Shown here: positions 1 to 15,701 of the stretch, piece by piece
Numbering within the stretch: position 1 is the first letter of the stretch
Layout of the letters: every line of letters begins with the position of its first letter
NCBI GenBank assembly: GCA_965197905.1
Contig: CBDAOB010000003.1
Coordinates: 416,001-480,000, forward strand
DNA length: 64,000 nucleotides
Reading direction: 5' to 3'
DNA from: Candidatus Latescibacterota bacterium
GTDB taxonomy: Bacteria > Latescibacterota > UBA2968 > UBA8231
Made by a program: the position numbers and the translations under genes
Notes under the pieces: model-generated
The model's input: the letters and a program-made list of their open reading frames with translations, nothing else
Database searches by the model: none
Told to the model about the DNA's origin: nothing

Positions 1-4063
<4,063 letters not shown>

Positions 4064-4175
4064 AATCGACTCCATTCGGCTTTCAGCCGATCTTCTGCCG
4101 AAAAATCGAAAACCGCGGCATCGGAAAGGGTACCCAGCTAACGTAATTATTGCCATAATCCTTACCTGCTAGCCA

Positions 4176-4401
4176 TCACGGTCCCGTTGAAAGATCAGCT
4201 TGCGCACGCGATGAACTCTGGAGCCGGTTGGTGCCGCATCCGATGACCTGCCTAGCCAGGTCGTGTAGATCGTCGAAGAAGGTATAGCACAGTGGCACCA
4301 CCAACAGGGCCGATCCAACCGATCACGAGCAAGGCGACGAGAATCATCACCGCAATAACCGGCCGGTCGACGGATAACCGAGGCAGCAGGTATTTCTGCA
4401 A
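4176..4401 (-). pseudogene. Collapsed AcrB/RND efflux permease remnant (first TM joined to last TM)
   Basis: LPRLSVDRPVIAVMILVALLVIGWI (typical RND N-terminus) abuts, out of frame at ~4310, ALLVVPLCYTFFDDL (typical RND C-terminus). Confidence 0.65.
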
Positions 4402-4423
4402 ATCAAACGTCGATGGTACTACG

Positions 4424-4600
4424 CTACCTCAGCACTGCATCCTTGCGTTTTTGTTTCCTGACATATGGCGTTTCGATGCTATGCCGACGGCAGATGCGCC
4501 CGAAACTGCGAAGATCGATTCCGAGAGCAGCCGCCGCTTCCTTGTTGGAGGCATACAGTCGTGCCACACGGCGAACCGATTCTAAGGGTGTCTTGACCAT
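4424..4600 (-). CDS. Small basic HTH-like protein (58 aa)
   Basis: ATG at 4600 preceded by CAGGAG; SNKEAAAALGIDLRSFGRICRRHSI resembles a Fis-type HTH. Confidence 0.7.
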   Translation of the reverse strand: MVKTPLESVRRVARLYASNKEAAAALGIDLRSFGRICRRHSIETPYVRKQKRKDAVLR

Positions 4601-4801
4601 GGCTATCTCCTGTCGAATAGTCTGTTCTCTTTGCAAGGGGCATGCCGGACGTGGAGAAACTGAACGCAGACATGGGTGTTCGCCTACGAAGTTTCTCGCT
4701 AATTGACGCTACGAGAAGGACCTGTCTAACATCGCGTGAAACCAAAGCGGAGATCTACTGAAAAATTAGGACGGATAGAAGAGCGACGACTGTACCGCGG
4801 A

Positions 4802-4848
4802 TGGAACAATCGTTACAGATCTGGTACAGGATGTTAGATATTTGGTAC
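4802..4848. promoter_or_regulatory. Three ~21-bp spaced direct repeats TGG(A/T)AC...GTTA upstream of the small HTH gene
   Basis: TGGAAC 4802, TGGTAC 4822, TGGTAC 4843; GTTA at 4812 and 4833. Confidence 0.4.
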
Positions 4849-4913
4849 GGTCATAAAGCCAGACTGATGTACTTCAGGATGCAATGCCAAGCGATACCCG
4901 ACTGCACTCCACC

Positions 4914-5981
4914 TCACTCTGAAGGTAGCCAACGATCCACATCCGCAACGGCAACTTCCTTTGTCTCACCCTCCAACCGTACCCGAGCGCCCACTTCATC
5001 GAGCTTGTAGATGGCCTGTTGCCAGAAACTGTCTGCGGTTCCCTCCTCGACTGCGTCGACGATGGCAACCAGAGCGTCCTCCAAGTAGCTTACGCCGTGG
5101 TGCTTGCCATATCGCTCGCGGACCTCGAACAGGCCGCGTAACACGCTGTCTCGATCCAATTGTGGTATACGGATGGGTGCGAAGCAGTCGACCAATCGTG
5201 GGTTCAATCTGCGACAATAGTCCATCTCGACGGTGACTCCGGTGAGCAACTGGAGGGTACCTTCCTCCAGAGCTGGCCGCAAAACTGATCCGTTCAAACT
5301 CTTCTCAAGGTCGACGAGATCTGCGAGACTGTGGAAATACAACAATACGTTGGCGATCGTTTTCGCCTCCTTCGCCATCGCGGTGACTCGCTCCTCCAAT
5401 TGCCCCCGGTATTTTACACCCGATTGGAGGCCGTCTATCGTCAGTAGGCGTCTGCTCGCGAGAGGTTCGGGAGCCGTCCCTGACGCAATATCCACCGCCA
5501 AAGCGTGTACTATGCCGCGTATCTCTGCGCTGTTGTCTCCGACGAGTACAACGCTGTTTCTATGGCGTCGGACCACCACGCAGGCGATTTCATCTATTAT
5601 CCGTTGACGGCCGGGAGCAGGGTCGAGCTCGTCGCGTCGCGCGTCGTCAACGAGGTCCCGCTGGAAGTAGTCGATAAATGGGGTCTCGCTTCTCTGTCCA
5701 GTCTGATCGTGGCGAGTGTCGGCGGGAACCGTTTCGAGAACGGTGTCCGCTCGCCCTTGGTCTTTAGCCGCCGAGGCGATGAGTTCTTGACCGATCTCTT
5801 CGGCTCGGCTGGGTTGCAGCAGACAAGCCCATGCCAGAATCGTCGAGTCGTTCGGGGGGTTGCGCCTGCCGCGCTCGATATCTGATAGGTAAGCTGGTGA
5901 GATGCGCTCATTCGAGATGTGGCTCAAATCGGAGGGGATCACAGGATACGAAACCCGGCACGAGTTCAGCCTCCCATCCAC
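4914..5981 (-). CDS. XRE-type HTH fused to degenerate ClpA/ClpB NBD1 AAA+ domain
   Basis: ISPAYLSDIERGRRNPP (XRE recognition helix); RDLVDDARRDELDP.PGR, RRHRNSVVLVG, SGVKYRGQLEERV, LRPALEEG, ERYGKHHGVSY, A...LDEVGARVRL match ClpB NBD1; Walker A and B are degenerate; start uncertain. Confidence 0.75.
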   Translation of the reverse strand: MDGRLNSCRVSYPVIPSDLSHISNERISPAYLSDIERGRRNPPNDSTILAWACLLQPSRAEEIGQELIASAAKDQGRADTVLETVPADTRHDQTGQRSETPFIDYFQRDLVDDARRDELDPAPGRQRIIDEIACVVVRRHRNSVVLVGDNSAEIRGIVHALAVDIASGTAPEPLASRRLLTIDGLQSGVKYRGQLEERVTAMAKEAKTIANVLLYFHSLADLVDLEKSLNGSVLRPALEEGTLQLLTGVTVEMDYCRRLNPRLVDCFAPIRIPQLDRDSVLRGLFEVRERYGKHHGVSYLEDALVAIVDAVEEGTADSFWQQAIYKLDEVGARVRLEGETKEVAVADVDRWLPSE

Positions 5982-6001
5982 TTACTTAACTAGTTGTTTA
6001 A
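5982..6001. promoter_or_regulatory. Palindromic operator-like site TTA-N3-AACTAGTT-N3-TAA in AT-rich promoter region
   Basis: TTACTTAACTAGTTGTTTAA lies just upstream of the GGGAGG RBS of the XRE-AAA gene; minus-strand TATAAT nearby (~6016-6021). Confidence 0.4.
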
Positions 6002-6136
6002 TCAATCTTTATAACATTATATCGGATCTAAATGTGGGGAAGCGTATCCGCTAAGGCATTGGCGATGTCACACCGAGCAGAGCCATGCACCAACGCCGGA
6101 ATGGGCTCTCCCCCCCCCGCCGAGACGGCGATGATC

Positions 6137-6874
6137 TCACGCCTTCCCGCCCGTCAGAATCGACACCACCTGCGGGACAGCCTCCGCCACACTTTCATCG
6201 AATTCATCGCCTTCCACGGGTGCAGCGTACGCCCGCAGTTCGATACTCCTGTAGCCTGCAACGCCGTCAAAGGTGCTCGACCAGGCGCCGGCTCCGGCGG
6301 TCCTGACTCTGGACTCCAGCTCCTTTCGAGGATATTCCCATCGCAGCTCCCTGCCACCGTAGCGGACCGTGTCTCCCTCCTTCACCCCGCTCATCCGCAT
6401 CCTGCGGTGTACCCCGAAGTGGATCAGCCTTCGATGCACGCCGTCGGTCTGTTGACCGGAGTCCTCCCATCCTTCTACCAGATAGCTCCCCGTCAAATGC
6501 GACAGCCTGAACCCATCACCATCGCGTTCGATCATCGGAACCCTTCCAGCGGCCGTGATATAGGCGGTCGGGATGCCTCTCAACTCGAACTCCAGCATAT
6601 CGTGCAAACTGCACGAACTGGCGCCGCATCAGTCCACGACTCCCATCACAAGCCCATCGCACCGCGGAACGATCTCCTCCAGAAGCTTCTTCGAGCAGAC
6701 CCGGTAGGGAGATGACTTCCTCCACGGTCCGACCACATTCGCGTCATACTCTCCTCCGAGCCGTTCCCCTACCGCCTCGAGAACGGCTGCTGAAGTACGC
6801 TTTCCCGGATCCAGAAGTCCGATCCTGGCACTGCTCAAGCGGGTCAATCGGGATGCAGGTTCGATACCTGACAT
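6137..6874 (-). CDS. UGSC-family thioredoxin-like selenoprotein (245 aa, Sec at TGA 6629-6631)
   Basis: ORFs 6629..6874 and 6137..6607 are in the same frame; readthrough gives RIGLLDPGK...CDGLVMGVVD-U-CGASSCSLHDMLEFELRGIPT, aligning with the family pattern DUGSCTSCS.HD...E.RGIPT; AAGGAG RBS; SECIS-like hairpin follows the TGA. Confidence 0.75.
6600..6616 (-). promoter_or_regulatory. Putative bacterial SECIS element
   Basis: Minus strand TCGTGCA-GTT-TGCACGA: perfect 7-bp stem with a G-led loop 19 nt after the UGA. Confidence 0.65.
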
Positions 6875-7118
6875 AGCTCTGCTCCTTTCCTTGGAGTGTT
6901 CCGCGCGTCAGTGACAAATATTGGTGAATGATTCCACGATAGCGAGTCTTGAGACGGGTGCCGTCTATCGTAGTGAATAGTGCGCAGCGACAGTCCGTCC
7001 GGGTCCTCGGCCATACACGACAGCGCCGGAGTGAAACGAAATGGAGCAGACAGCGGCGTTGCAACAGAGCATCGCCGAGATGCACTAATATCAAGTGTGC
7101 TAAAGTATCTAAAGTGAT

Positions 7119-7988
7119 TTATGTCTGGGGACGCCCCGCATGCGCGGATTTGTGCTGGTGGTTCAGTTCCAAAGGCATACCTGCGGTAATATCGTTGCCC
7201 GATCCAGCAGTGACCGGCCAGGCCTGGCCGCCCTCGAATACAAAGTCTTCCCGGCCGCACAGCCACAGGAACAGACGCGCAACGCGGACGGAGTCGTGCC
7301 ATTTCTCGGGCATTTGGTGGCCGGTGCTGAAGTCGATCTTGGCGAAATCGCACTGCGGGTCGACAACCCAGTCGCGCCTGGGCGCGGCCGTGCGCCGGTA
7401 GTTGTATTTGAGCAGGTTGCGGATGCCGCTGGCCGTGGAGGGGGTAGCGCGATGCCAGATCGAGTAGTGGGTGATAAAGATCGAGCCGGCCGGCGCCACC
7501 GTCTGCACGGCCTGGCGAATGCTGCCGTATTGGGTCATGTACCGGCGCTTGACGCGAAGAAGGTGGGAACTGGGCAGGACCTCGGTAGGACCCAGCTCCG
7601 CGGGCGTATCCTGCGGGTAGTAGAAAACCTGTAGGCTGTCGAGCCGCGGCGAGTCGACAGCCCCGCCGTCGCGGTGCCAGCCGCCACTCATGGCGCGCGG
7701 GCACTGGACGCGGTGGTTGCCCATGATCATGGGTACTTTGAAGTCTTTGCCCAGGAGCGAGCGCACCGCCCCCGCTGCCTGCGGGTTCTTAATGACGTGG
7801 TCGACGAACCACTCCTCATCCAGGATTTCGATCGGCACTATCTCGGGATACCTGTCGACGAATTCCGTCGTGCGGCGGTTGACCTCGGCGGGGACCACGG
7901 CCTCGAGCATCATGAAGCCATTCTTGCAGAATTCAATCACTTGCTGGTCGGTCAGCGTCGGTTCACAATCGTATATTTCTCCCAACAT
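7119..7988 (-). CDS. Phytanoyl-CoA dioxygenase (PhyH) family Fe/2OG dioxygenase
   Basis: LTDQQVIEFCKNGF, WHRD, GPTEVLPSSH, AGSIFITHYSIWHR. Confidence 0.85.
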   Translation of the reverse strand: MLGEIYDCEPTLTDQQVIEFCKNGFMMLEAVVPAEVNRRTTEFVDRYPEIVPIEILDEEWFVDHVIKNPQAAGAVRSLLGKDFKVPMIMGNHRVQCPRAMSGGWHRDGGAVDSPRLDSLQVFYYPQDTPAELGPTEVLPSSHLLRVKRRYMTQYGSIRQAVQTVAPAGSIFITHYSIWHRATPSTASGIRNLLKYNYRRTAAPRRDWVVDPQCDFAKIDFSTGHQMPEKWHDSVRVARLFLWLCGREDFVFEGGQAWPVTAGSGNDITAGMPLELNHQHKSAHAGRPQT

Positions 7989-8517
7989 GATCCGTCCTTT
8001 CGTGGATTTATTTTGGTGTTCATTTTCCGCTTCTTTCTAGAGCGGCACCGCATCTGCTTTTTGCGGCCAGGACGGCCGCTTTGTCTTTGTGCCACATGCC
8101 CGTTAACTCTTTGTATCTGAACCTTGTGGGGTTGCTGTACAGACTACTATGTCACCCTGGAATATAGTGTGAACCATTAATTAAATTCCTTTTCGGAGGG
8201 AAGCTGGGGGGTTGGGTTAAAATTCCAACATGGCTTTGACCACCCTCTGGTCGGGGTCTAACCCCAGGTGGGGCAGTCTTCGATTATGGTGTCGGTGGTC
8301 GTTGGGTCAAGTCAGGTGGCGCAATCGCTTCGTTTTCCAATGAGTCGGCCATTGGGTACCTCCGATGTGTGGTTGGGAATACACCAATCTTGCAATTTTC
8401 GTGTCGAGAGACAAGAAAGCGATGGCAGACCCGAAGCAGTGGAAATTCCAGAGTGTAAGCATGTGGTCACGATACGTTCAGGCTGGCGCTGGCACCGCGA
8501 CGGTATTTCGGTCGCTC

Positions 8518-8544
8518 ACACGCGTTCGAATCCCATACGGGCCA
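8518..8544 (+). other. Degenerate tRNA 3'-half remnant (tRNA-Glu-like), possible old att site
   Basis: ACACGCGTTCGAATCCCATACGGGCCA has a T-loop GTTCGAATC and acceptor-like end; no matching 5' half upstream. Confidence 0.35.
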
Positions 8545-8747
8545 ACGTAAAAGGGTATCTGATCAGATTCAGGGTCCCCTTCCCTTCTTTGGAACATTTC
8601 GTCAAATTATCGACTCTTCCCTTTCCAGCTAGCGACACCAGTGGTAAGTACGCCGTCAGAAGCCTCGATTCGGAGATGCTTCAGTCATAATTCAGATGCT
8701 GAGGGTAAAGCGAGCCAAACCCATCCCAATTTGAGCCCAACTCACAT

Positions 8748-9413
8748 ATGAAAATCCAGATTACCGGATTATTGATAGCTATTCCGATTCTTGCTTCGAG
8801 TGCAGGAGCACAGGAAATCACAGGTTCTATTTTCAAGGATGCGTACCACCCCGTGCTGCTACGACATAGTAGACTTCCTGTAGTTCGTCGCATCCAGCAG
8901 AATAGCAGGTTCCTTCATTCCGGATTTTTGCAAACATCAATGCCAGTCATCGCAATGCAACCCCCAAGAATGAATCACGCTTCAGGACCTCGGCTTGTGC
9001 CTTGGATGGGAGGAAGAGATGGCATCACGAAAAACCAAGAGAAAGTCCGTATGGAATCTTGGAATTTAGCTCTGCGCGGCCTGCTTGAGTTATCGAGCTT
9101 AGCCGCGATGGGATATTGGGGATTTGAAAAGGGAGATGGTGCAGGACGTTACGCTCTGATGATCGGCGTGCCCCTGGTATCAGCAGCTGCCTGGGGCATT
9201 TTTGCCGTTGAAGGTGATCCGAGTCGGTCAGGGACCACAGTTGTTCATACGCCTAGCATCCTGCGATTGGCGTTGGAGGTGGGTTTTTTCACGTTTTCGA
9301 CCTGGGCAATTCAAGATGTTGGCGCGAAACCTCTTGCTATAGGTTTTGGAGGTGCCGCTGTTTTTCACTATGCGGTGTCGTACAAACGCGTGCTGTGGCT
9401 TCTGCATCTGTAG
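8748..9413 (+). CDS. YrdB/DUF2568-like membrane protein with N-terminal extension (alternative start 9051)
   Basis: NLALRGLLEL..LAAMGYWG, AAAWGIFA..GDPSRSG, LRLALE. Confidence 0.7.
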   Translation: MKIQITGLLIAIPILASSAGAQEITGSIFKDAYHPVLLRHSRLPVVRRIQQNSRFLHSGFLQTSMPVIAMQPPRMNHASGPRLVPWMGGRDGITKNQEKVRMESWNLALRGLLELSSLAAMGYWGFEKGDGAGRYALMIGVPLVSAAAWGIFAVEGDPSRSGTTVVHTPSILRLALEVGFFTFSTWAIQDVGAKPLAIGFGGAAVFHYAVSYKRVLWLLHL

Positions 9414-9507
9414 AATTTGAACCAATCCATGAGGCACATTTCATATGACCGCGGTCGAGAGTGGTCACCAACGGGAGTGAGATCGGTCTTCAAGATAGGA
9501 GGATTCC

Positions 9508-10180
9508 ATGTTTGTCGGACACTTCGGCGTGGGATTGGGTCTTAAATCGGTGGTTCCAGCCCTTTCGCTAGGCACCCTCTTTCTCGCTGCGCAGTTCATT
9601 GATTTGCTGTGGCCCTCGCTGCTCCTGGTCGGACTGGAGCACGTCGAGATCGCACCCGGCATTACACGCGTTACTCCGCTGGACTTCGTTAATTATCCGA
9701 TCTCCCACAGCCTGCTGGCCGTCCTCGGCTGGGCCGTCCTATTTGCCTTGACATATCTGCTGATACGGAGGCATCGGCTCGGTGCCGTCATCTGCGGGGT
9801 AGCCGTACTGTCACTGGCTGCTCGACCTGGTGACCCATCGTCCTGATCTCCCCCTATATCCCGGCAGCGAGTCCCTGGTTGGTTTTGGCCTGTGGAATTC
9901 ATTGTGGGCAACACTGGTGGTTGAATTGTTGCTCTTCGGAGGCGGCATCTGGCTCTACCTTCGCAGCACCCATGCCCGTGATCGGATTGGGTCCATTGGA
10001 TTGTGGGCGCTGCTCGGATTCCTGCTTCTGGTTTATCTAGGCAACCTCTTTGGACCTCCACCAGAGAACGTCACCGCGCTGGCATGGGTATGCCAAGCCC
10101 AATGGCTGGTAGTCGTATGGGGGTACTGGGTTGACAATCATCGGCACGAGACACTGAGTCAGGAATCACTATCCAGTTGA
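9508..10180 (+). pseudogene. Membrane-bound metal-dependent hydrolase (YdjM-like), frameshifted near 9812
   Basis: MFVGHFG...SHSLL in one frame, then HWLLDLVTHRPDLPL continues in another; GGAGG RBS. Confidence 0.8.
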
Positions 10181-10254
10181 GGAGTGGAGATTGACATCAC
10201 CTCCGCCTGTTGGATGTCCGTTCAACCGCTTCTTCGCAGTAGTAATTATCCCGA

Positions 10255-10320
10255 TCACGCGGCTTTGCGGGCCGGGTAGAGACCGAAGAAAGTCAGGAGG
10301 GCAACAGCACTTATCAGCTG
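10255..10320 (-). pseudogene. C-terminal remnant of a MacB/FtsX-type ABC permease
   Basis: Translates as LISAVALLTFFGLYPARKAA-stop. Confidence 0.45.
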
Positions 10321-10324
10321 TGCC

Positions 10325-10531
10325 ATGCGCGCTGACGGCGGGCCCGTGAAGGTGTTCGCCAACGCCGATCTGTCGCAGCACTGTCCGCTGACGGTGGAGG
10401 TGGAGGTGCTGGATGAGCAGTTTCAGCCGCTGCCGGCGGGGGAGTCGTTCCGCTTGCAGGTTAACTACGGTGGCGGTTTGCGGCCGGAGGATGCGAAGCT
10501 CTACGTGTTGTATGTTGCGGGGGACGGCTAG
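10325..10531 (+). pseudogene. Gene remnant, probable C-terminus of a larger protein
   Basis: Coding-like codon usage; VEVLDEQFQPLP...RLQVNYGG..PEDAKLYVLYV; no plausible N-terminus. Confidence 0.35.
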
Positions 10532-10638
10532 ACTAAGTGCTGGCCTTTACTGATCAGGTTGAGCCAAGAGCAAGCCGCAACCTCGAAGGTTCGATACAAG
10601 GAACCGCTCCAGAATTTACGGCTCGCGACGCCCGATCT

Positions 10639-11661
10639 CTACCCCCCGAGCTCCACCGCCAGCACCCACATCGGAGCCTTACCCACGTCGTAGATCACCC
10701 GGTCTGTCAGCTCTCCGCTGTCTTGATCGATGCCGTAGGCCGACATCTTGCCGCTCACGGCGCCGGCCGCGAAAAAGAACTTTCCCTGCGGGTCCACCTC
10801 GATCCCTCTCACGTGATTTTCGGTGGGCACCCGGCCGATGAGTGACAACTCTCCGGAGTTTTCGTCTATGTTGAAGCAAGCGACGCTGTCGTGGCCTCGA
10901 TTCGGGGCGTAGAGGAACTTGCCGCTCGGATGCACGCGAAGCTGGGAGGTCGAGTTCTCGCTCCTGTCAAAATCGTCAGGCAGGGTCGAGATTGTCTGAA
11001 AGGCGAACACCGTTCCCGATTCGCTGACATTGTAAGCCGAAATGCTGTTGCCCTGTTCATCGGTCGTATACATCACCGCCATTTTCGGATGGAAACGGAT
11101 GTGACGCGGACCCAGTCTTTCTGACGGCACCATTTTTAGTGGCGTATTCGGTGTGATCTCACCCGTGTCCCCGTCGTATTTGTATTGATAGAGTGCATTC
11201 GAATTGATGCAGTTCGGCACGTAGACGAATCTATTCGACGGGTGCACCTCCACCGAGTGCGCCCCCGGTTCCGTTCTCACCGTGCACACGGCGGGCTCCG
11301 CCAGCACACCATCGCCGCCGACACGGTAGCTGCTCGCCCTGGCCCCGCGCTGGCCCGAGGTGAGCACGAACTTGCCGGTTCCATCCACGGTTACGTAAGC
11401 GGAATCCGATTCTTCCTCGATTGTGCCGAGGTGCGCCAGGGTGCCCGTCGCCTGGTCGATGGCCAGTGTGGCTAGTTTGCTGATGGGACGGCGCACGGCG
11501 TACAGGAAGTTCTTGTTCGGAGCTAACGCCAGCGCTGCTGGTCCCCCCTCCAACGGCAGGTCTTCCTGCTTTTCCAGCACGCCGGTTTCGGCGTCCATCT
11601 CAAAGATGCTGATCTTGTCTTCGCCGCTGATGCTAACGTACAGGTAGTAGGCCATCGTCAC
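10639..11661 (-). CDS. pgl: 6-phosphogluconolactonase-like 7-blade lactonase
   Basis: GAHSV..HPSNRFVYVP, GPRHIRFHP, HPSGKFLYAPNRGHDS, PMWV. Confidence 0.85.
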   Translation of the reverse strand: MTMAYYLYVSISGEDKISIFEMDAETGVLEKQEDLPLEGGPAALALAPNKNFLYAVRRPISKLATLAIDQATGTLAHLGTIEEESDSAYVTVDGTGKFVLTSGQRGARASSYRVGGDGVLAEPAVCTVRTEPGAHSVEVHPSNRFVYVPNCINSNALYQYKYDGDTGEITPNTPLKMVPSERLGPRHIRFHPKMAVMYTTDEQGNSISAYNVSESGTVFAFQTISTLPDDFDRSENSTSQLRVHPSGKFLYAPNRGHDSVACFNIDENSGELSLIGRVPTENHVRGIEVDPQGKFFFAAGAVSGKMSAYGIDQDSGELTDRVIYDVGKAPMWVLAVELGG

Positions 11662-11720
11662 CTCTCTCCCGTTGAATTGTCGTCCGGTTGCTGGCAGAAG
11701 CTAGGCAATTCTCTATCCGA

Positions 11721-12548
11721 TCAATATCGCCTTTTCCAGCGCCAGCTGTCGCTGCCCGAGATGAGCGGCTTGATGTCTTCAGGCAAGGTTTCGATGAATT
11801 CAGGGCTGACCTCGTTCCTCGGCCACTCGCGGAGCATCGGTGGTGTATAGCCGGCGATTAGGATTGTACGTTCCGCATCGCTACGGATCGCAGTACTGCT
11901 GTGGAGGAGAGATTCCGTAAAAAGCAAGGTTGACCCGGCCATTGCTTCGACCTGATGAATCAACCTGTCATCCGCAAGCGCAGCATTAATCATCTCTTCA
12001 GCTGACCACGTCAGGCGATGTGAGCCTGGAATCACACACGTTCCACCGTCATCCGGACCGACGTCTGTCAGGTAGGATAACGTCTTGACGAAGATAGCGT
12101 GGAATTTGTTCTGCTCGATGTAGGTTCCCCAGCCGTGCTTGGTTCCTCTATGAAACTTGGTCGGATTATAGCGCCTCTTGTAAAGCTCATGGAGGGCCAG
12201 GACTGGATCCTTTCGGTTAATGATTGCCTCGGTTTCCTCCAGACGAACCTTACCGCCAACGACCTCCTCGACAAGCGGAACGAGCTTCCGGTGAGCGGCG
12301 TATTCCAAAAGTGCCGGGTCGTATTCGACGAGATTGCCCATCTTGGTATAATGATCGCTTCGGCTGGCATAGACTCGTTTGGATTCGAGATCTGGGTCAA
12401 CGCGGATCCGGTGGAGAGCGTCCTTCATCCGACCAACCTCGTCAGACGTCAAGGCGTTCTCTAGCAACACGTAACCGTAAATATCAAAGTGTAGGCGTTG
12501 TGCAGGTGTCAAACGGATGGTTTCGTTGTTATCCATTGATTTAGCCAA
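11721..12548 (-). CDS. PhyH-family Fe/2OG enzyme with HxG iron motif
   Basis: FDIYGYVLLENAL, FHRG, YLTDVGPDDGGTCVIPGSH, AGSTLLFTESLLH. Confidence 0.85.
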   Translation of the reverse strand: MAKSMDNNETIRLTPAQRLHFDIYGYVLLENALTSDEVGRMKDALHRIRVDPDLESKRVYASRSDHYTKMGNLVEYDPALLEYAAHRKLVPLVEEVVGGKVRLEETEAIINRKDPVLALHELYKRRYNPTKFHRGTKHGWGTYIEQNKFHAIFVKTLSYLTDVGPDDGGTCVIPGSHRLTWSAEEMINAALADDRLIHQVEAMAGSTLLFTESLLHSSTAIRSDAERTILIAGYTPPMLREWPRNEVSPEFIETLPEDIKPLISGSDSWRWKRRY

Positions 12549-12606
12549 GCAAAGAGAAATCCAAATTTGAAACGGCTCAGTAGAGGGTATGGATAGTTAA
12601 AATACG

Positions 12607-12876
12607 GTGGCATTAGTTTTTGTGACAATAGCAATTTCCGGTTGCACAGCAGGGAGTGTCGCGCTGAGCGGCAGGGTGGTAAGGGACACAACGGGTATAC
12701 CTCTGACAAATGCTCGAATTGATATATATACCAAACCCAATGAAGTCCTAGGCCCGGTAGCCCAAACCTATACAGACAGCAGCGGAAGATCGAGCTGGGT
12801 GATCCACCTGATCAAGGATCAAGTTTTTTGCTTCATGTTAATCATATTATCCACGAACCCGTATCGGTCCATGTGA
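12607..12876 (+). pseudogene. Lipoprotein with carboxypeptidase-regulatory-like domain, probably disrupted
   Basis: Lipobox-like ISGC; LSGRVVRDTTGIPLTNARI...TDSSG. Confidence 0.4.
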
Positions 12877-13092
12877 CTTTCCTGGGTCAGAGTGCCATGC
12901 ATTTTGCTCCAGGAGACTGCCAACTTTTACGACCTATCGATAAGTTTCGCAAGACAAATCTTCAAGAACCGAGCGAACCTCAATGACCGCATAGGTACTT
13001 GATGCGAAGCCGCTGGATAACTCGGACTTTGACAAATTAGTCCGAGATCTTCCGGCATTTCGAAATCACGGAAGGAAGAAGGCGGAATTCTG

Positions 13093-13287
13093 CTAGATCA
13101 GGGCTTTTATCTCCACAAACCAGGAACGAACGTTGTGACCTGCGGTGGGAAACCAGATGAGGTCGACGCAAACCGAGACGATTATTCCACTTACATAGCC
13201 GATTGCCAGACCGTAGAAAAACGGCTTGCCCGCCAGGTAAGCGCCTTTGCCGCCGAAGCGCAACAGCAACACCTTCACCAATGGCAC
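13093..13287 (-). pseudogene. C-terminal fragment of a DUF6784-like multi-TM membrane protein
   Basis: KVLLLRFGG..AY..GKPFFYGLAIG...VDLIWFP; N-terminal part absent. Confidence 0.55.
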
Positions 13288-13523
13288 TAGCTGGTGGATG
13301 GCCTCATGGAAGCGGGATTCGATATGCCGAGCGTTTCCGGAGGTCCCCTTTCATACATCGTATCAGCTTGTTGGCAGCGGAATGAAGGCGGAGGTTTTTG
13401 AAAACGGGAACAAATGAGAAAATCTGTCTTTCAAATGGCCTCACGGTAGACCCGGCGCCGGAACATGCACGCTAGTTCGAAAATTTTCGAGAATCCTGAA
13501 TACTCTAATCCGCTGAAAACACT

Positions 13524-15701
13524 TTGACATTGTTCATCGCGAAACATTGGTTTGCCTTGATGAACAGCTCGTTGGTCTTCCCTATTACACGTGCCTGGAA
13601 CGAGGTGTCATCGTCGTGTTCCGCACGCACCACTCGACTTCGCCCGCTGGTGTGGACGGTACTCTGTTGTCTTTGTATGCCGGTGCAGGCTCCAGGTGTC
13701 GCTTCCTTCGCAGAGGCAGCTGAAAAGCGTTTCGTGACCGCTCTGCGGGTGGAGGAACCAATTTTGGTCGATGGAGACCTGGCAGAGTCGTCGTGGCGCC
13801 TCTCCGAACGCGCCCGAGACTTCTATCGCGTTGAGCGAACTCGAGGCGTACTGGCGGAATTGCGAACAGAAGCAATGGTCCTCTACGACGATACTCATCT
13901 CTACGTTGGATTCAAATGCTTTGAGCCGGACATAAACTCCCTACGCGAAACACTGACGCGGCGCGATTCCAGGATCTGGCACGACGACGCAGTTGAGGTC
14001 GTACTCGACACCTACGACGACGATCGAAACGGCTACATATTTGGCGTCAACTCACTGGGTACGCAGATGGACGAGCATGTTAGCAACGAGTCTGTGTTCA
14101 CCATGACCTGGGATGCCCATTGGCAAGCGCAAGTGATGAAATATGAGGATTCGTGGAGTGTCGAATTCGCCATTCCACTTGCTGAACTGCGATTCGGAGA
14201 GAACACAACGTGGGGTATTAATTTCTGGCGGGCCCATCCAATCGACCGAGAAGCGTACTCCTGGTCGGATACGGGCGGTGATTTCGGCCGCGTATCCGAA
14301 TTCGGTGAGCTACGCGGACTCCAATTCGTCACATCGAGACAGAGAAGGTTCGGAATCCTACCCTATGCTACCTATCGCGCACTTGAGCAGCTGCCAGACG
14401 ACCGCGACTATGGGGTAGATTTTTCACTGCAGCCGCTGACCAGTCTGACGTCGAACATCACCATAAATCCAGATTTTTCGCAGTTGGAGAGTGACCCGAC
14501 GCAGATTGATGTATCCAGTGACAGAGAGCTGTCGCTTCCCGAGCGGCGGCCTTTCTTTCGCGAAGGCGCCGAGCTCTTCCGGCTTCCCCTCAACCTTTTC
14601 TACAGCCGCCGTGTACAGGAGATTGATTTCGGCCTGAAAACAACGGGAAGGATAGGGTCATACAATCTTGCACTGCTCAATACCTACGGTCGCATCGTAG
14701 ACCGCTACGACGATGACCGCAAACGGCGGGCAAACCTATTCAATCTGCGAGCCAACCGCGATATCGGGGATCGCGCCGTCGTCGGTTTCATGGGTGTTCA
14801 AAAGCATCAAGCGGATCGCGATGTCAGCTTGCTCTCAATAAACAGCAGACTGGCGTTGCGGAGGGACTGGTCCGTCCAACTGCAGTCGGTGGTGAATCAT
14901 GTAGAGGGTGAAGAAAACTGGGCTTACCATGCCTCAACCAGATGGACGCACGAACAGGGATGGTTCGGCGATCTTGCAGTTTCCGAGATTCAAAACGGAT
15001 TCCGCCCCAACGAAACCGGCTTGGAGGACGAAGCGTATCGAAAAGTAAACGGTCAATTTGGCTACAGGCACGAGTACCCTGAAGGCAGCAGGCTAAAATC
15101 ATATCGAGTCAGATACAGCATCTTCTATCAGACCAACGAAGAACAGAAGCTACGCGAACGACTCTCGACTTTGTGGGGAGGCGTCAATGTTGGCCGTTTC
15201 GGCTTCATCGCGGTGGGCCGCACCGGAAAACAACGCGATGAAGGCATCTTATTTGACCGGGAGGTGCTCAACCTTCAAGCCACGTACAGTTCCACCTGGA
15301 ACAATGTCCTATTGTTCAGCAGGTTCGCCAAACGTCAAAACCGAAGCATTCGGCAATTCCTCGTGCTTGCGAATGCGACCCTGCTTGAAAAGGTGACACT
15401 CGACTTCCGGGGCGACAGAACTCATTGGCGCGATCACCGGAAAACCTGGCTCGTGAGAATCAAGGGGAACTACCAGTTTGCTAGAAAGGTAGGCAGCCGA
15501 CTTTATATCGAACGCGTCGACGAGCAGTTGGAAGAGGAGATAAATTACAATTTCAACTGGGTCTTTGACTACGAATTTACGCCGGAAAGTCACTTTTATC
15601 TCGTCTTCGTGCGCGACCAGGAAAATCGTCGAGCTATGTTTACCAAGTTAGCCTACCTCTTCGACTCTAACGCCCTACGTTGGAGGCGTCATGAACAATG
15701 A
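13524..15701 (+). CDS. CBM9-like plus DUF5916-like outer-membrane protein
   Basis: ILVDGDL.E..W, DDAVEVVLDT, WSVEFAIP, NITINPDFSQLESD, LPERRPFFREG, LFYSRR; true start uncertain. Confidence 0.8.
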   Translation: MTLFIAKHWFALMNSSLVFPITRAWNEVSSSCSARTTRLRPLVWTVLCCLCMPVQAPGVASFAEAAEKRFVTALRVEEPILVDGDLAESSWRLSERARDFYRVERTRGVLAELRTEAMVLYDDTHLYVGFKCFEPDINSLRETLTRRDSRIWHDDAVEVVLDTYDDDRNGYIFGVNSLGTQMDEHVSNESVFTMTWDAHWQAQVMKYEDSWSVEFAIPLAELRFGENTTWGINFWRAHPIDREAYSWSDTGGDFGRVSEFGELRGLQFVTSRQRRFGILPYATYRALEQLPDDRDYGVDFSLQPLTSLTSNITINPDFSQLESDPTQIDVSSDRELSLPERRPFFREGAELFRLPLNLFYSRRVQEIDFGLKTTGRIGSYNLALLNTYGRIVDRYDDDRKRRANLFNLRANRDIGDRAVVGFMGVQKHQADRDVSLLSINSRLALRRDWSVQLQSVVNHVEGEENWAYHASTRWTHEQGWFGDLAVSEIQNGFRPNETGLEDEAYRKVNGQFGYRHEYPEGSRLKSYRVRYSIFYQTNEEQKLRERLSTLWGGVNVGRFGFIAVGRTGKQRDEGILFDREVLNLQATYSSTWNNVLLFSRFAKRQNRSIRQFLVLANATLLEKVTLDFRGDRTHWRDHRKTWLVRIKGNYQFARKVGSRLYIERVDEQLEEEINYNFNWVFDYEFTPESHFYLVFVRDQENRRAMFTKLAYLFDSNALRWRRHEQ

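Follow-up and report, generated by a model that had tools for sequence, protein, structure and literature searches.

A fusion of an XRE-type helix-turn-helix (HTH) domain with the first nucleotide-binding domain (NBD1) and the lid of a ClpC-type protein, about 370 amino acids long, is a real, if rare, protein family that is under purifying selection, and the intact protein is very likely a transcription factor. The query gene lies in the window, that is, the whole stretch of 64,000 nucleotides analysed here. The first-pass annotation of this stretch had proposed a transcription factor with a pseudo-ATPase Clp domain; the regulator itself stands, as a conserved XRE-HTH fusion, but the operator and the target that had been assigned to it do not. 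For the intact protein, autorepression, taken alone, appears quite probable.

Domain architecture of the window gene

The features of the locus are the following.

4424..4600 (-): small HTH gene, 58 aa, of a multicopy lineage family; a neighbour only
4811..4848: imperfect repeat of two copies at 21-bp spacing; borderline, unlike the family operator and not part of the module
4914..5981 (-): XRE-HTH/dead-ClpC-NBD1 open reading frame (ORF), 355 aa (window allele)
4914..5906 (-): what remains of the fusion gene; its 330 aa are identical to the intact allele P0187 (residues 28-357 there)
4926..5159 (-): AAA lid domain, PF17871 above cut-off, with the ClpC lid Pro replaced by Trp
5169..5690 (-): large domain of a ClpC-type NBD1, catalytically dead
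5184..5189 (-): Asp-Cys in place of the Arg-finger pair
5328..5339 (-): YFHS, a degenerate form of Walker B
5388..5420 (-): pore loop 1, GVKYRGQLEER, invariant
5517..5540 (-): GDNSAEIR, a degenerate form of Walker A
5751..5813 (-): long helix that follows the HTH (H59-79 in the predicted model), mean conservation 0.70
5817..5906 (-): XRE HTH, of which helices 3-4 with the recognition helix ISPAYLSDIERG are left; the window allele has no helices 1-2
5907..5981: 75-bp foreign patch; the intact form has 173 bp here, made up of 27 codons and about 92 bp ahead of them
5982..6030: AT-rich upstream remnant, 22% GC, containing the palindrome of the first-pass annotation

The XRE recognition helix and the ClpB-NBD1-like sequence behind it, as originally annotated, are borne out by Pfam, by NCBIfam and by the match to Bacillus subtilis ClpC, which covers residues 94-342, and the Walker A and Walker B motifs had been read correctly as GDNSAEIR and YFHS in the window ORF. 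NBD1 and lid together match the NCBIfam ClpB model at an E-value of 2e-31, yet with 109 bits against a cut-off of 1232. A Foldseek comparison, which had been suggested for domain boundaries, superposes the predicted model on the NBD1 of ClpC/ClpC1 with an rmsd of 2.1-2.6 Å over about 255 columns, and the structural match to 9if4_A (VIA) has a Z-score of 27.1 and an rmsd of 2.5 Å for 248 aligned residues. The HTH_3 match of the window allele (residues 27-55, 17.9 bits) falls below the Pfam cut-off of 23; in intact alleles a complete XRE HTH scores above it (35.9 bits for P0187, 30.3 bits for P0002). In single-chain models the N-terminal pLDDT is 59-67 for the window allele versus 85-95 for P0187. 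As to its type, the HTH resembles capH of PADLOC (E-value 5e-5) and the control protein (1e-7), and the long helix behind it in the predicted model is a likely dimerisation helix.

The family and its origin

Of 7999 candidates scored, 40 passed, comprising 37 family members (the query included) and three ordinary Clp proteins; the other members share 38-76% identity with the query. The alignment used below holds 36 full-length sequences, namely the 37 minus four partial ones and the window's own, plus four found later. These proteins are 354-381 aa long and contain neither a Clp N-domain nor a second NBD, and Pfam detects just the HTH and the lid in them. They form one clade (SH-aLRT 100 in a quick tree) on a long branch. 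A position of the family nested within ClpC was considered, and the tree, a quick search with this long branch in it, gave no such placement.

In the AAA part, dN/dS is 0.10-0.46 in 15 of 21 pairs, the other six being saturated; the values are rough, as dS exceeds 1.4 in all pairs but one, and the closest pair (0.46, from 20 N and 15 S) is weak. Absence from other genomes, neutral decay and homologs with intact Walker motifs had been named at the outset as arguments against a functional module; the fusion does occur in other genomes, dN/dS lies below 0.5, and no homolog with intact motifs was found.

The donor of NBD1 was probably the lineage's own ClpC, since the two share the linker motif F[LIVM][DE]HF, which is present in 21 of the 36 family members, in 7 of 7 ClpC proteins of the same class and in 3 of 81 other Clp proteins. 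Homology of the family begins at this ClpC linker, and identity to the ClpC of the same genome is about 32%. The ClpC of the fusion genomes groups near Bacteroidota and Calditrichota (support 84 in a quick tree).

Within the phylum, full-length copies are found in 5 of 168 genomes, belonging to four families of one class, and 5 further genomes matched via ClpC only. An alignment-based scan of the genome collection confirmed 595 stretches, of which the best 80 were all ClpC matches at 30-37% identity without the HTH; these served as controls. No viral contig matched the HTH-specific pattern. Plasmid (2092) and phage (161) records did match, the eight best of each covering the AAA part only; places covering at least 80% of the protein number 12 in plasmids and one in phages and were inspected in part. 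None of 45 candidate proteins of 626-2000 aa carries the family HTH, which is weak evidence, and the ESM Atlas returned generic AAA clusters only, at most 0.85. The architecture had been taken to be undescribed, and indeed no description of an XRE-dead-NBD1 fusion was found in the open literature, most subscription journals lying outside this scope. Source databases label individual members ClpC, ClpA or HTH protein; proteins of this family go about there under ClpC or ClpA names.

A dead ATP site and an invariant pore loop

The reference set consists of 88 canonical Clp NBD1 sequences picked by their KYRG and GKT/S motifs, the conservation of which is therefore by construction. Among the 36 family members, the Walker A lysine is never present and the threonine once (0/36 and 1/36), Asp and Glu of Walker B are both missing throughout (0/36 each), and both Arg fingers are lost (Arg in 0/36 at each position), the second being Cys in 33/36. 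Conserved loss of the Walker motifs, which had been proposed as a check on homologs, is thus found across the whole alignment. The Ile of the ClpC motif DPVIGR is Pro in 32/36 and the lid Pro is Trp in 34/36, at positions that we take to line the adenine pocket. Because the pocket is remodelled in this way, nucleotide sensing, one of the roles originally suggested for the domain, appears unlikely.

No other 11-residue stretch of the AAA part is as well conserved as pore loop 1 (0.96, against an overall 0.64), whose pattern G-x-K-Y-R-G-Q-x-E-E-R has all nine of its fixed residues in 36/36. A word-based search could favour this loop among the members found; it is also kept in P0209 and P0210, retrieved by HTH words only, and in P0041 and P0042, found without the word index. 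Pore loop 2 has become 4-5 residues shorter, and the face that held the Arg fingers has been rebuilt. According to the part of bioRxiv 10.1101/428458 consulted here, Y251 of ClpB intercalates and grips the substrate, K250 and R252 form cross-protomer salt bridges with E254 and E256, and the pore loops are flexible absent substrate. In the family, the K, Y and R and the equivalent of E256 are invariant, and the E254 position is Gln, the same as in the parent ClpC.

The damaged allele of the window

The frame of the window gene had been described as intact, a description that did not hold: its first 25 codons are foreign, and its relatives start with conserved HTH helices 1-2. These 25 residues match the family N-termini in no frame. 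P0187 shares a 90% cluster with the window protein; its HTH start is complete (27 residues), and the 330 residues that follow are identical. In the public run X1, a contig identical to the window over 4300-5906 goes on with 173 bases that the window lacks and meets it again at 5982. The 27 codons take up 81 of these 173 bases, leaving 92, in which we infer the promoter, operator and ribosome-binding site to lie; in relatives these elements are found within 58-92 bp of the start. The patch opens with the GTG start codon of the window ORF, which no Shine-Dalgarno sequence precedes. The window copy is broken because 75 foreign bases replace HTH helices 1-2 together with the presumed promoter and operator; the allele, without half of its HTH and probably without its promoter, is most likely null, and the 355-aa ORF is a by-product of the patch.

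No source of the patch was found in its own genome, in phages or in plasmids, nor in 75 genomes of the same family, where one weak 31-bp match was seen. A microhomology-driven microindel of the SPDIR type would fit. For this allele only, an assembly error in place of a real microindel is rather unlikely. It would agree with the 173-bp form being the sole one in X1 and with the intact P0187; against it, the contig of run X2 breaks exactly at 5906, and depth arithmetic for X2 over 5938-6028 requires an extra contig of about 2.7x, which fits the presence of both alleles. The contigs of both runs show no difference to the window over 4300-5906, and the joint from 5906 to 5982 has side 255 and depth 4.87 in X1, and side 30 and depth 2 in X2. 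Four of the 23 listed public runs were compared with the window, and X1 or X2 may be its own source run.

Other alleles from close relatives look damaged as well: P0003 has an altered N-terminus, P0189 an internal deletion of 34 aa after the HTH, and P0010/P0191 is a split gene. These represent either frequent loss in the subclade or assembly errors.

Operator, promoter and gene neighbourhood

Upstream of intact fusion genes lies the palindrome TTAGC-N6-GCTAA, at six loci in five independent contexts (L092 and L093 share one). It starts 22 bp after TTGACA in four of the five loci that have a TTGACA, and 19 bp after it in the fifth; with the 22-bp spacing, the palindrome would be expected to cover the predicted -10 element of its own gene, and its left half might double as the -10 hexamer. 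A zero-mismatch site occurs once per genome, at the fusion gene, in all four intact genomes, and is absent from the genome of the window; since the pattern was derived from the fusion loci, its presence is by construction and only uniqueness and position are tests. The predicted operator of the family is a different palindrome from the one first annotated, placed over the gene's own promoter and missing in the window. In G060, G066 and G061, a second site with at most two mismatches lies 73, 74 and 131 bp upstream, respectively; none is found in L095, L126 or L127. Other sites with one or two mismatches are no commoner than those of a reversed-pattern control, none lies at a recognisable chaperone gene, and the distant candidates (L145, L147, L149-L154) are mostly inside or at the ends of unrelated genes.

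Six of the 132 class genomes scanned have a perfect site, namely the four fusion genomes, G159 and G131. In G159, it precedes a pair of XRE and Peptidase_M78 (IrrE-like) genes, the former with a similar recognition helix, which suggests where the family HTH may have originated; the two HTHs align weakly (E-value 0.004). One of the two zero-mismatch sites outside the fusion genomes, that of G131, precedes a MOSC-domain gene, which counts against the autorepressor reading.

As regards the sites themselves, the G159 pair (L157:464-1516) is situated beside a Fic gene, with the palindrome between TTGACG and the start codon, and the G131 palindrome (L156:921-1516) is 35 bp upstream of the MOSC-domain gene, no fusion having been found in that genome.

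Most fusion genes look monocistronic from their gene order. The next gene downstream faces the fusion gene (convergent) in 4 of 5 independent contexts, and in L126/L128 it is ychF, on the same strand; a kamA-like gene upstream with a nucleoside deoxyribosyltransferase gene downstream is common to two families. No clpC is present in the five fusion-gene contexts examined, and no M78 metallopeptidase was recognised among the neighbours in L092-L095, L126-L128 or the window. CtsR is found in none of five genomes and a McsB-type kinase in two of five, with no clean link. Bases 1-14000 of the window have the fusion gene alone in common with the loci of its relatives; the fusion is missing in five of five close genomes, in which its window neighbours lie apart. 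The simplest reading is monocistronic self-regulation, in which the gene regulates only itself.

A proposed mechanism and its alternatives

We give about an even chance to the whole chain of a four-step mechanism in which the fusion protein is an XRE autorepressor and a decoy. An HTH would have been fused to a duplicated NBD1 of the lineage's own ClpC, the motor being lost subsequently. HTH dimers would bind TTAGC-N6-GCTAA over the -10 element and block transcription, while the dead NBD1 would oligomerise by ClpC-like stacking of pore loops, such that one assembly holds two operators about seven turns apart. Any entrant of the first ClpC ring, be it an unfolded chain, a ClpC-directed inhibitor or a phage protein, would bind the pore loops, alter the assembly and free the promoter, and the sole output would be more protein, a non-translocating decoy or holdase that buffers ClpC. 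The four steps are built on what the computation gave: the family, its dead ATP site and pore loop, the single clade, selection, a unique palindrome and no linked target. That the assembly is a nucleotide-free pseudo-AAA+ ring whose KYR loops grip unfolded polypeptide, a ClpC-directed toxin or a phage protein, thereby releasing a two-operator DNA loop, we consider somewhat unlikely. If true, such a ring would be a one-component proteostasis sensor-sponge made from the substrate channel of an unfoldase, in a lineage where CtsR was not found. ClpB and ClpC rings need nucleotide, and the pore loops of ClpB are flexible absent substrate, so that a nucleotide-free ring cannot be taken for granted. 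These points, the shortened pore loop 2, the remodelled Arg-finger face, the loci with no second operator and the presence of the gene in just 5 of 168 phylum genomes count against the four-step mechanism as a whole.

The same pore loop can be read differently. The dead NBD1 might co-assemble into host ClpC rings as a brake, with autorepression setting the dose and free ClpC titrating the protein off the DNA; derivation from the lineage's own ClpC and the retained neighbour-contacting residues of the loop, which match the Gln variant of ClpC, speak for this, but the identity to that ClpC of only about 32%, the rebuilt Arg-finger face and pore loop 2, the missing middle domain and NBD2, and the five contexts devoid of clpC make it unlikely. 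Were the Clp domain a mere oligomerisation scaffold for cooperative repression from two operators, with induction coming from elsewhere, for instance from an IrrE/ImmA-type peptidase in trans, the paired operators would be accounted for, as would the zero-mismatch palindrome before the XRE and Peptidase_M78 pair of G159 with its similar recognition helix. However, a scaffold explains neither the peak of conservation at the Tyr loop that faces the substrate nor what is gained by a repressor that targets only itself, and the family and G159 HTHs align weakly; we regard this reading as distinctly unlikely. A thiol or metal switch, with oxidation sensed by cysteines newly acquired near the former Arg finger and the DNA let go in response, draws on C268 (33/36), C258 (30/36) and C27 of the HTH (34/36), the two AAA positions having no Cys in the ClpC consensus; the cysteines are not invariant, though, and a buried Cys may be structural, which makes such a switch improbable.

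Very improbable, finally, is the original model of a nucleotide sensor that controls the downstream small HTH gene through 21-bp repeats. The 58-aa HTH ORF is present, on the same strand and 313 bp from the fusion gene, and the repeats exist as two copies (13 of 17 positions identical). Their significance is borderline: of 300 shuffles at each length, 2 do as well at length 17, 83 at length 12 and 16 at length 21. The repeats are unlike the family operator; the palindrome noted upstream is at chance level, since 257 of 500 shuffles do as well. The small HTH belongs to an unlinked multicopy family, with 11 matches in the genome of the window (G000) and a presence in 70 of 75 genomes of the same family. 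With the same query it turned up in none of the 56 genomes from the three families to which the other four fusion genomes belong, and it was not found in the fusion loci of those genomes, so that neither the synteny nor the target suggested for it stands. The lost Walker motifs and the Ile-to-Pro and Pro-to-Trp changes oppose the nucleotide-sensing half of that model.

Comparison with known systems

The preferred reading, an autorepressor decoy, is best understood as a convergent analogue of ClpC2 built from NBD1, by analogy and not by membership. In the portions available of PMC10030653 and bioRxiv 10.64898/2026.06.30.735635, ClpC2 is described as repressing its own promoter via one or two operators as an oligomer, as being released by phosphoarginine (pArg) or cyclomarin, and as a proposed sponge or holdase. 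Like mycobacterial and actinobacterial ClpC2, which in these portions is a partial, non-proteolytic copy of ClpC with palindromic operators at its own promoter, the fusion has one or more palindromes, in its case predicted computationally. ClpC2 as described there is built on the Clp N-terminal repeat domain, and what it senses is pArg and cyclic peptides, whereas the fusion consists of a dead NBD1, a lid and an XRE HTH; PF02861 was found on neither P0187 nor P0002. If the reading is true, bacteria have twice made a piece of ClpC into an autoregulated decoy, from the N-domain in ClpC2 and from NBD1 here.

With the NBD1 of the class I Hsp100 proteins ClpC, ClpB and ClpA, the fusion shares the fold, the N-linker, the KYR pore loop and the lid; unlike active Hsp100 proteins, it lacks Walker A and B, the Arg fingers, the N-domain, the middle domain and NBD2. 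If the preferred reading is true, the family would also be a natural experiment on a long-standing AAA+ question, namely whether nucleotide is needed for KYR pore loops to assemble and to grip substrate. A comparable turn from ATPase to binding module within a repressor is seen in the ClpB-derived domain of plant SMAX1/D53, the D2 of SMAX1 having a degenerate Walker A and a repurposed pore loop (PMC12639087, in the part available). As portrayed in that part, SMAX1/D53 differs in being eukaryotic, with two NBDs, a D2 loop changed to RGKT, degradation via SCF and no XRE HTH, whereas the fusion has a single NBD1 with the ancestral loop. The HTH type is that of XRE repressors paired with IrrE/ImmA peptidases (CapH-like and C-protein-like), but in the contexts seen the fusion has no adjacent peptidase and carries its sensor domain in cis. 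The family offers a small soluble protein, point mutants and an operator prediction, which puts the idea within direct reach of experiment.

Other observations in the window and its genome

Members of the small HTH family are 50-70 aa long, follow the pattern ERAARIY...AA.ALGI...F.R.CR and have no Pfam match above cut-off. The family, a marker of this lineage, is found in none of the other 92 genomes of the phylum and also occurs inside longer ORFs of 450-650 aa. In G000, at C4:2091022-2094700, a McsB-type kinase gene is directly upstream of clpC, and CtsR was not found in that genome. A 5.7-kb segment is duplicated at 99.9% identity between C1:145520-151230 and C2:457885-463594, at the end of C2, and is possibly an assembly overlap. 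Window positions 6057-6097 (41 bp) match, at 88%, the end of an element that lies at C3:331786, has a transposase-like ORF and is presumably IS5/IS903-like; solo copies are also present on C1 and C2. At 6137-6874 (-), the window encodes a UGSC-family gene, multicopy in relatives (at least four copies in G098), whose 245-codon frame contains a single in-frame TGA followed by Cys, a candidate selenocysteine codon.
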